Assembly (NCBI RefSeq): GCF_055900595.2
Contig: NZ_CM148325.1
Reading direction: 5' to 3' (one strand)
Length of the DNA: 64,000 nt
The notes under the pieces are model-generated. The model searched no databases and had not been told where the DNA came from. It saw only the letters and a list, made by a program, of their open reading frames with translations. Shown here one piece after another: positions 7,629 to 10,149 of the stretch. The first letter of the stretch is position 1; each line of letters opens with the position of its first letter. The translations under genes and the position numbers were made by a program.

Positions 7629-8639
7629 ATGAAGGCTGCAGTTGTTACGAAGGATCATCATGTTGACGTTACGGATAAAACACTGCGCTCACTGAAACAT
7701 GGCGAAGCCCTGCTGAAAATGGAGTGTTGTGGCGTATGTCATACCGATCTTCATGTTAAGAATGGCGATTTTGGTGATAAAACCGGCGTAATTCTGGGAC
7801 ACGAAGGTATTGGTGTGGTGGCAGAAGTTGGCCCTGGTGTAACTTCATTAAAACCAGGCGATCGTGCCAGTGTGGCGTGGTTTTACGAAGGTTGCGGTCA
7901 TTGCGAATACTGTAACAGCGGCAACGAAACGCTGTGCCGTTCAGTAAAAAATGCCGGATACAGCGTTGATGGCGGTATGGCGGAAGAGTGCATCGTGGTC
8001 GCCGATTACGCAGTTAAAGTGCCGGATGGCCTGGACTCCGCGGCGGCTAGCAGCATTACCTGCGCGGGTGTCACCACCTACAAAGCAGTAAAACTGTCAA
8101 AAATTCGTCCAGGACAGTGGATTGCTATCTACGGTCTTGGCGGTCTGGGCAACCTCGCCCTGCAATATGCGAAAAATGTCTTTAATGCCAAAGTGATCGC
8201 CATTGATGTCAATGATGAGCAGTTGAAACTGGCAACCGAAATGGGTGCAGATTTAGCGATTAACTCACGCACCGAAGACGCCGCCAAAATTGTGCAGGAG
8301 AAAACTGGTGGCGCTCACGCTGCGGTGGTAACAGCGGTAGCTAAAGCTGCGTTTAACTCGGCAGTTGATGCTGTCCGTGCTGGCGGTCGTGTTGTGGCAG
8401 TCGGTCTGCCGCCGGAGTCTATGAGCCTGGATATCCCACGGCTGGTGCTGGATGGTATTGAAGTGGTCGGTTCGCTGGTTGGCACGCGCCAGGATCTCAC
8501 CGAAGCCTTCCAGTTTGCCGCCGAAGGCAAAGTGGTGCCGAAAGTCGCCCTGCGTCCGTTAGCGGACATCAACACCATCTTTACTGAGATGGAAGAAGGC
8601 AAAATCCGTGGCCGTATGGTGATTGATTTCCGCCGCTAA
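7629..8639 (+). CDS. adhP: zinc-dependent alcohol dehydrogenase (propanol-preferring)
   Basis: 336-aa product from [11 protein letters not shown], preceded by AGGAGG. Contains the zinc-ADH signature GHEGIGVV and Rossmann motif GLGGLG. Confidence 0.9.
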
Positions 8640-8648
8640 GAGGCCTTT

Positions 8649-8684
8649 GCTGCGACTGCCATGTTCGGGTCGCAGCCTGTTTTG
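8649..8684 (+). terminator. rho-independent terminator downstream of adhP
   Basis: GCTGCGAC ... GTCGCAGC stem followed by CTGTTTTG. Confidence 0.6.
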
Positions 8685-8824
8685 CGAGACGCTTTCCGCA
8701 ATTTCACTCTTCTTCTTTTCCTCCCCCATCTTTCCCCTCACAATTCGCGAAAACGTAGCGAAATTTGTTGCGCTGCACGGAACAATAGTGATAGTGTTCC
8801 TTTCGAGGGAACAAGGATGAAGAG

Positions 8825-9103
8825 ATGATAATGAATTTCAGACACAAGGGATTGCGTGACTTGTTTCTTCTCGGCAAAACCTCCGGCGTTATACCGACGC
8901 AAATCAAACGATTACGCCACCGACTCGCTGTGATTGATGCAGCAAGCTGTCTTGCTGATCTCGATATGCCCGGTTACCGACTACACCCGTTAAGCGGCGA
9001 TCGTGATGGAATTTGGGCGATATCTGTCTCGGGCAACTGGCGAATCACATTTGAATTCGTCAATGGCGATGCATACATACTGGATTACGAGGACTATCAC
9101 TGA
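8825..9103 (+). CDS. HigB/RelE-family toxin-like protein (plasmid-maintenance-killer type)
   Basis: 92-aa basic ORF directly upstream of, and overlapping by 1 nt with, an XRE-type HTH gene. Toxin-first order is typical of higBA modules. Start may be the ATG at 8825 or at 8831. Family assignment is from size, charge and context only. Confidence 0.6.
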
Positions 9104-9387
9104 TGAAAATGGCCAATCATCCCCGCCCGGGGGACATTATTCAGGAATCACTGGACGAGCTGAACGTCAGCCTGCGCGAGTTTGCCAGAGCAATGGAAAT
9201 TGCGCCCTCAACGGCAAGCCGATTGCTGACCGGAAAAGCCGCGTTGACGCCAGAAATGGCGATTAAACTTTCCGTGGTGATCGGCAGTTCGCCGCAAATG
9301 TGGCTGAATCTACAAAACGCCTGGAGTCTGGCAGAGGCAGAAAAAACGGTAGATGTGTCGCGACTACGCCGTCTGGTTACGCAATAA
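9103..9387 (+). CDS. yddM: HigA-type HTH (XRE family) antitoxin-like DNA-binding protein
   Basis: 94-aa ORF with an HTH segment ([27 protein letters not shown]). Located between adhP and fdnI, as yddM is in K-12. Confidence 0.75.
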
Positions 9388-9419
9388 ATAAATATCCTCC
9401 GGCATAGCCGGAGGTTTTT

Positions 9420-10095
9420 CAAATGCGCCTGTAAGGCTCTGTTACCAGCCGCGCCCTAACAGGCGCATACGATCTGACATTTGCATTCAACTTCGTTACT
9501 TACGGCCCGTAAACGGGCTGCCCGGATATGGAATCGATAACTGCTCCCCCATTTTATCCTCTTCAAGCTGGTGCTTTATGTAGTCCTGTATCTTCGCCGT
9601 GTTCTTACCCACCGTATCGACATAGTACCCTCGGCACCAGAACTCCCTGTTTCTGTATTTGAATTTCAAATCCCCAAACTGCTCGTAAAGCATCAGACTG
9701 CTTTTCCCTTTCAGATATCCCATAAAGCCGGATACGCTCATTTTGGGTGGGATTTCCACAAGCATATGGATATGATCTGCGCAGCACTCTGCTTCCAGAA
9801 TCCGTACGCTTTTCCACTCACACAGCTTTCTCAAAATACTGCCTATCGCCCTACGCTTCTCTCCGTAAAACGCCAGTCTTCGGTATTTCGGCGCAAAAAC
9901 TATGTGATATTTACAGTTCCAGCGGGTGTGCGCTAAGCTCTTTTCGTCCCCCATTGGGACCCCCTTTTGATTTCTTGTTTGACACTTGCAGTTGCCAGAC
10001 CGCAAGGTGTTTTAACAAATCAAAAGGGGTTTTAATAACTGGCTCAAAGCTGAAAGCTTTCCGGAACCCCCAGCCTAGCTGGGGGTTTTCTGTGC
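9420..10095 (-). mobile_element. IS200 insertion sequence (IS200/IS605 family); boundaries approximate
   Basis: Contains an IS200-type tnpA. The upstream end carries a GC hairpin (CCCCCAGCCTAGCTGGGGG at 10066-10085) and a long imperfect palindrome at 9961-10030 that would occlude the tnpA RBS, as described for IS200. Exact termini could not be fixed by eye. Confidence 0.7.
9496..9954 (-). CDS. tnpA: IS200 transposase TnpA (Y1/HUH transposase)
   Basis: 152-aa product MGDEKSLAHTRWNCKYHIVFAPKYRR ... with the HUH motif (HIHML) and catalytic Tyr region typical of IS200 TnpA. The track ORF extends 17 codons upstream. Confidence 0.9.
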   Translation of the reverse strand: MGDEKSLAHTRWNCKYHIVFAPKYRRLAFYGEKRRAIGSILRKLCEWKSVRILEAECCADHIHMLVEIPPKMSVSGFMGYLKGKSSLMLYEQFGDLKFKYRNREFWCRGYYVDTVGKNTAKIQDYIKHQLEEDKMGEQLSIPYPGSPFTGRK

Positions 10096-10097
10096 AC

Positions 10098-10131
10098 AAA
10101 AAAATGGCGCTTTTTACAGCGCCATTTTCAG
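10098..10131 (-). terminator. hairpin terminator downstream of fdnI (potentially bidirectional)
   Basis: AAAATGGCGC ... GCGCCATTTT perfect inverted repeat flanked by A/T runs, immediately 3-prime of the fdnI stop. Confidence 0.6.
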
Positions 10132-10149
10132 CTTAAAGTTCAAAAGAGA

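Follow-up and report, generated by a model that had tools for sequence, protein, structure and literature searches.

The window, the whole 64,000-nt stretch of DNA analysed here, carries an intact, autonomous insertion sequence of the IS200 group (IS200/IS605 family), near IS200C, that inserted precisely after the T-run of the fdnI terminator and is expected to be about neutral for its host, a reading to which we assign a probability of roughly 0.9. The complete element is 712 bp long and lies on the minus strand at 9387-10098 (equally 9388-10099), with its left end (LE) at 10098 and its right end (RE) at 9387. The element and its family are already known, and the site is annotated as occupied in hundreds of RefSeq genomes.

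Identity and boundaries of the element

The ends were set by alignment, using four plasmid copies that NCBI labels IS200C, then both junctions of 10 copies from sites that are unrelated and, as a last step, the Salmonella IS200F and Yersinia IS1541A elements, for 12 copies with unrelated flanks in all. Read along the tnpA strand, conservation begins at (T)TGTGCACAG and stops at GGATATTTATT, and the sequence beyond these points is unrelated between copies. When the flanks at 9200-9387 and 10100-10300 were joined, the resulting 389 nt were 100% identical (389/389) to sequence in nine complete E. coli genomes. The joined flanks are thus an exact empty site, showing that the insert is exactly 712 bp and that insertion was precise and made no target duplication. 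A Blast comparison of the window with the genome of Z0117EC0005 likewise gave a 712-bp insertion without target duplication. Because the target is a homopolymer (A/T) run, the boundaries are ambiguous by 1 nt; we prefer 9387-10098 because, with nt 1 at 10098, the hairpins of the element fall at their published IS200 positions. The earlier note on this DNA, made from its letters, had placed the element at 9420-10095 and flagged the termini as provisional; the location was right, and the extent fell 33 bp short at the right end.

The transposase gene tnpA occupies 9496-9954 on the minus strand (IS nt 145-603, with its ATG at nt 145) and encodes a 152-aa Y1 (HUH) transposase. The product matches Pfam Y1_Tnp (PF01797, E=7.9e-37) and the NCBIfam equivalog model transpos_IS200 (NF033573, 144 bits against a cut-off of 55), as well as the solved TnpA structures 2ec2 and 2f4f (Sulfolobus), 2a6m (IS608) and 2xm3 (ISDra2). 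Its DHIHMLV segment aligns with the HUH motif of 2ec2/2f4f, and RGYY, from the tyrosine segment RGYYVDT, lies opposite their RSYF. Compared with the IS200C TnpA WP_000526135.1, the protein is 97% identical with four amino-acid differences, and identical tnpA DNA is annotated as WP_000502112.1 at two other loci. The open reading frame and the Pfam, NCBIfam and structure matches all agree with the 152-aa IS200 TnpA that had been recognised from the letters, and matches to Y1_Tnp, transpos_IS200 and Rfam RF01405 place an IS200 where one had been claimed. A REP-associated tyrosine transposase (RAYT) was also considered and rejected, as NCBIfam REP_Tyr_transpos scored only 30 bits against a cut-off of 80.

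At ~700 bp, the element carries tnpA alone, with no tnpB and no second ORF that has a family match. Terminal inverted repeats are absent, in that LE TGTGCACAG... and RE ...GGATATTTATT are not inverted repeats of each other, and subterminal hairpins are found at both ends (nt 12-34 of the element; 9396-9414 of the window), each after GAAAA. Copies with 100% identity over the full 712 bp occur in many E. coli chromosomes, some of them at the same site, and are annotated as 'IS200/IS605 family' without an isoform label; across 5426 complete genomes there are roughly 10,000 IS200 places. Neither a 15-mer scan nor a palindrome search found further IS200 copies in the 64,000-nt window.

Among named relatives, the copies labelled IS200C by NCBI are collinear over the 712 bp, with 95-96.5% DNA identity (97% for TnpA). 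Salmonella IS200F has 91.8% DNA identity to the window copy and shares its LE terminator hairpin (nt 12-34), 5'UTR stem-loop (nt 69-138), tnpA position and RE hairpin; it also lies directly after a hairpin and T-run. The two differ at LE nucleotides 4-8 (GTCTATG against GTGCACA), and Salmonella IS200 is given as 707 bp in PMC4513863, against 712 bp here. Yersinia IS1541A, which reaches a high copy number in Y. pestis, is more divergent in sequence (86.7% identity) and has the same architecture, with conserved end hairpins and an LE that again abuts a hairpin and T-run. More distantly, IS608 and ISDra2 share a Y1/HUH TnpA (2a6m, 2xm3), subterminal hairpins and the lack of target duplication, and they likewise insert 3' of a short target on single-stranded DNA. 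However, tnpB is also present in these elements and their targets are TTAC and TTGAT, whereas the window copy has no tnpB and its target is a T-run after a hairpin.

Isolated IS200 fragments, none of them annotated, were also seen in many E. coli plasmids. One is a 141-bp right-end fragment with ~89% identity in pO157-type plasmids (e.g. pO157, NC_011350.1, 94307-94447), and the other is a 338-bp fragment made up of the left end plus the 5' part of tnpA.

Hairpins and RNA features

The repeats at 10065-10087, 9961-10029, 9396-9414 and 9426-9467 are conserved in the E. coli, Salmonella and Yersinia copies. The first of these is the LE perfect palindrome AACCCCCAGCTAGGCTGGGGGTT (10065-10087, minus strand; IS nt 12-34), located by the Rfam RF01405 alignment and by folding, with fold energies of -18.7 and -20.7 kcal/mol; a DNA fold was also computed. 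This 23-nt palindrome occurs once in the window, where 0 occurrences are expected by chance, is invariant in IS200C, IS200F and IS1541A, and coincides with the IS200 LE palindrome at nts 12-34 of Ellis et al. (PMC4513863). It corresponds to the bidirectional Rho-independent terminator by which IS200 protects tnpA against transcription entering from outside, and it is probably also the LE hairpin bound by TnpA. For the bidirectional LE terminator of Salmonella IS200, the IS200 literature gives about 85% termination.

The tnpA 5'UTR forms a stem-loop that hides the Shine-Dalgarno (AAAAGGGGG) at 9961-10029 on the minus strand (IS nt 70-138), as placed by folding and by the Rfam structure; the published IS200 stem-loop spans nt 69-138 (PMC4513863). 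On the minus strand, 9964-10087 gives a hit to Rfam RF01405 (STnc490, covering the left end of IS200 with its 5'UTR) with 146 bits, where the gathering score is 56. The characteristic upstream hairpins that had been noticed in the raw sequence are therefore real features of an IS200, with a family-level Rfam match and folds that agree with nt 12-34 and nt 69-138 as published.

When the description in PMC4513863 is transferred to IS numbering, the antisense sRNA art200 (STnc490) would be expected on the plus strand at 9946-10035, a region nearly identical to that of Salmonella IS200F. Regulation by art200, by Hfq and by a 5'UTR sRNA targeting invF has been shown for the Salmonella element, and may by analogy apply to the window copy. 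On the same analogy, tnpA would be kept almost silent by the combination of the LE hairpin terminator, a promoter of low strength, occlusion of the ribosome-binding site in the stem-loop, Hfq and antisense art200. A scan of 8600-10900 found no sigma-70-like promoter, including for tnpA and art200.

The Rfam STnc490 match lies on the tnpA-sense strand, whereas STnc490/art200 is called antisense to the 5'UTR of tnpA by PMC4513863. Given this conflict, the match identifies the region only and not the strand of the sRNA, and the Rfam family seems to model the LE and 5'UTR structures rather than the antisense transcript. Two other Rfam hits, Ysr202 (31 bits, where the gathering score is 315) and STnc320 (22 bits), were generic matches to terminator hairpins and were treated as chance.

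At the other end, the RE subterminal hairpin CCTCCGGC-TAT-GCCGGAGG lies at 9396-9414 on the minus strand, with GAAAAA before it and ATATTTATT after it. It folds with -15.5 kcal/mol (z = -4.5), is invariant in all 12 aligned copies, and was found on both strands by a terminator scan; on the plus strand it reads CCTCCGGCATAGCCGGAGG followed by TTTTT, a terminator-like arrangement 8 nt past the yddM stop. The LE and RE hairpins are alike, each with GAAAA, an 8-bp GC-rich stem and a 3-nt loop (TAG or TAT), and their stems differ at two positions that are both compensated (C-G to T-A, A-T to G-C). By sequence, the two hairpins look like paralogues. Between the tnpA stop and the RE hairpin there is a long imperfect inverted repeat, GCGCCTGT...ACAGGCGC (9426-9467, minus strand), which appeared in the DNA fold of the last 125 nt and is conserved in IS200C, IS200F and IS1541A.

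Hairpins flanking a transposase gene could in principle be native REP or terminator sequences, leaving only the region around tnpA as the mobile unit, and the earlier note had named native REP sequences as the finding that would overturn its reading. The K-12 intergenic region does have REP/BIME units, and the hairpin at 9396-9414 resembles a yddM terminator. However, the hairpins at 9396-9414, 9426-9467 and 10065-10087 accompany the element in 12 of 12 copies from three genera, whose sites are unrelated, they are missing from the exact empty site, and the K-12 REP units do not occur in the window. We consider a native origin to have next to no chance of being correct; the hairpins are parts of the IS that travel with it.

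The fdnI-yddM site and the history of the insertion

The element sits between yddM, encoding a HigA-family antitoxin (9103-9387, plus strand; TIGR02607 antidote_HigA, 93.7 bits, and annotation in relatives), and fdnI, encoding the gamma subunit of formate dehydrogenase-N (10150-10803, minus strand; Pfam Ni_hydr_CYTB and annotation in relatives), with 762 bp between the yddM stop (9385-9387, plus) and the fdnI stop (10150, minus). The yddM stop codon TAA at 9385-9387 abuts the right end of the IS. fdnI (fdnGHI) is co-oriented with tnpA, and its terminator is immediately 5' of the left end. This position between yddM and fdnI, adjoining the fdnI terminator, is the one originally proposed, now with both neighbour genes and the terminator located and with annotation in relatives in agreement.

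The native terminator, AAAAAATGGCGC-TTTTTA-CAGCGCCATTTT at 10099-10128, is a bidirectional intrinsic terminator acting on both strands, for fdnI and, in empty-site strains, for yddM too. It folds with -18.2 kcal/mol (z = -4.3), is present without the IS in K-12 and in empty-site genomes, and lies outside the block shared by IS copies. Its minus-strand T-run (10099-10104) is the insertion target. With the first IS base supplying the seventh T again, the fdnI terminator remains whole, and any read-through from fdnI is predicted to meet the LE terminator next. On the other side, the yddM reading frame and stop codon are kept, although the last A of the stop may be IS-derived with the sequence unchanged, and yddM is predicted to meet the RE hairpin and T5 in place of the shared terminator. 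It had been suggested that the element might influence termination or read-through of yddM and fdnI; with the fdnI T-run whole and the RE hairpin 8 nt past the yddM stop, we predict little such influence. Little change in fdnI/yddM termination is expected, disturbance of fdnGHI or yddM expression is unlikely, and the insertion is expected to be close to neutral. For annotation, the apparent yddM terminator hairpin is IS-borne, so that yddM would now be terminated by transposon sequence.

Two features of the neighbouring genes were observed in passing. A HigB-like toxin gene (8825-9103, plus strand) is intact, encodes 92 aa (Pfam HigB-like_toxin, E=3.6e-18) and has an overlap with the beginning of yddM (HigA), the two making up a full higBA pair; no HigB-like gene is present in K-12, TUM14771 or CFSAN061763, which makes their yddM an orphan antitoxin. 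For fdnG, only an 803-aa ORF is listed (11693-14104, minus strand) where relatives annotate a 3048-bp gene. We take this short ORF to reflect the expected in-frame TGA selenocysteine codon of the formate dehydrogenase-N alpha subunit and not a pseudogene.

The fdnI-yddM site of K-12 MG1655 has no IS. In its intergenic region of 406 bp, a 178-bp unit that holds a REP/BIME pair and one copy of the terminator hairpin is repeated in tandem, with 2.2 copies (95% matches), and K-12 also lacks higB, the HigB-like gene that precedes yddM in the window. With no IS at the site, tandem REP-containing units (two of 178 bp) and no higB in K-12, the window strain is not K-12, as the earlier note had concluded from the IS200, and the comparison with an empty K-12 site that it recommended shows the native terminator hairpin standing there without the IS. 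K-12 is reported in the literature to lack IS200 genome-wide; the comparison made here is of the local site. The expansion of REP units in K-12 and the IS200 in the window mark this terminator region as a hot spot at which two kinds of repeat have expanded or inserted.

Comparison with complete genomes bears on the age of the insertion. On the two sides of the insertion, each compared over 9.2 kb, Z0117EC0005 and the window are 99.97% and 99.90% identical, and the IS is the sole large difference; this genome has the exact empty site and 17 IS200 places elsewhere, one of them 100% identical to the window copy. Of 5426 complete genomes, 308 (5.7%) have IS200 at the site that it occupies in the window, on a different flank haplotype without higB. 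The flank haplotype of the window together with the IS was found in none of the 5426 (best match 99.1%), and nine genomes have that haplotype with an empty site. This distribution points to a recent gain in the window lineage, which is the simplest reading of the sequences. The alternative is that the insertion is ancestral and was precisely excised by TnpA in the nine nearest empty-site genomes. Precise excision that leaves a perfect empty site is within the mechanism of Y1 transposases, and the same site is occupied in those 308 other genomes, but the window haplotype is known only empty among the 5426, a single gain is more parsimonious than repeated losses, and both excision and transposition of IS200 are described as rare in PMC4513863. 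We consider ancestral insertion with later loss improbable.

The 308 occupied sites, lying on a different flank haplotype, suggest independent hits. Among these genomes we compared CFSAN061763, where the IS has 0/712 differences from the window copy and the flanks have 22 SNPs, the nearest 23 bp and 14 bp away, with one A fewer at the junction. The nine SNPs within yddM keep the protein WP_000781370.1 and are therefore all synonymous. The identity of the IS to the same-site copy in CFSAN061763, and to those in many other genomes, could also be explained by import through homologous recombination from a lineage already occupied at the site. Such import would need both crossovers to fall within a few bases beside the IS, given flank differences that begin 23 bp from its left side and 14 bp from its right and junctions that are one A apart, and the window has no donor-type haplotype beyond the IS ends, its flanks matching Z0117EC0005 at 99.9%. 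Import by recombination is therefore very unlikely, and independent insertion at the fdnI terminator in CFSAN061763 and in the window appears the more likely history.

A copy of an element with the very low transposition frequency described in PMC4513863 might instead be a dead relic, fixed and immobile. We give this little credence here: the ORF is whole, the HUH motif is present, both ends are whole, the copy is 100% identical to many others, and genomes with 99.9% identical flanks differ in whether the site is occupied. Such presence/absence polymorphism argues for mobility, as judged from genome comparison. IS200 is described in the same source as nearly dormant, and the apparently very recent insertion seen here sits awkwardly with that description. 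The window strain carries the IS at this site and its closest sequenced relatives have the site empty, which makes occupancy a recent strain marker usable for typing.

Intrinsic terminators as insertion targets

The arrangement at the fdnI terminator recurs at every site in our alignment. In a small and non-randomly chosen sample of 12 sites (10 from E. coli/E. albertii, Salmonella IS200F and Yersinia IS1541A), LE abuts a GC-rich hairpin and T-run in 12 of 12. The target stems are GC-rich and 8-13 bp long with loops of 4-9 nt, the T-run ends at the first IS nucleotide, and the 5' flank ends in TTNT inside the T-run at all 12 sites. For the 10 E. coli/E. albertii sites, the mean MFE was -17.6 kcal/mol for the last 45 nt of the 5' flank and -6.9 kcal/mol for the 3' flank. 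In five chromosomal cases LE lies just downstream of the end of a neighbouring gene (ybiJ, fadR, cutC, amtB or nagD) that has the same orientation as tnpA. The terminator pattern itself is not new, as a preprint has reported that terminator-like sequences are enriched upstream of IS200/IS605 elements.

We tentatively propose, with a little less than even confidence, that IS200 homes to intrinsic terminators, where the hairpin and T-tract in single-stranded DNA would mimic RE (hairpin plus ATATTTATT) and be read by the A-rich guide. The same pattern could arise from the survival of neutral insertions rather than from recognition by the transposase. What has already been reported is the statistical enrichment; targeting at the nucleotide level, recognition of the hairpin and mimicry of RE are the hypothetical parts, which may or may not hold. 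If homing occurs, the IS would bring its own terminators at both ends and its insertion would be nearly neutral. Homing would also explain how separate E. coli lineages took independent insertions at one and the same nucleotide of the yddM/fdnI terminator, how tandem IS200 dimers arise, and how a 'dormant' IS persists at high copy number. With IS200, IS200F and IS1541A all landing after terminator T-runs, the proposal offers a concrete target model for a poorly studied branch of single-strand transposons.

By the mechanism of the family, TnpA would excise the tnpA-sense ('top') strand as a single-stranded circle, and the circle would re-enter single-stranded DNA 3' of a T-rich target (TTNT) preceded by a GC-rich hairpin, preferably and probably on the lagging-strand template. 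In IS608, each hairpin has a guide on its 5' side, and this guide pairs with the cleavage site. By analogy with IS608, the A-run 5' of each hairpin here (GAAAA) is the likely guide, and the T-rich cleavage sites with which it pairs would be the target TTNT and the RE terminus TATT. GC skew on the plus strand of the window is negative overall, which would put the top strand of the IS on the lagging-strand template, as the IS608 rule predicts, at this one site. Two of six chromosomal sites (nagD and ybiJ) may break the lagging-strand rule, judging by K-12 gene orientations.

On plasmid pNMBU-W05E18_02 (NZ_CP042880.1, ~28.3-29.9 kb), a direct tandem of two IS200C copies has the junction ...GGATATTTATT-T-TGTGCACAG..., and the single T between the RE of one copy and the LE of the next fits a role of RE as a target mimic.
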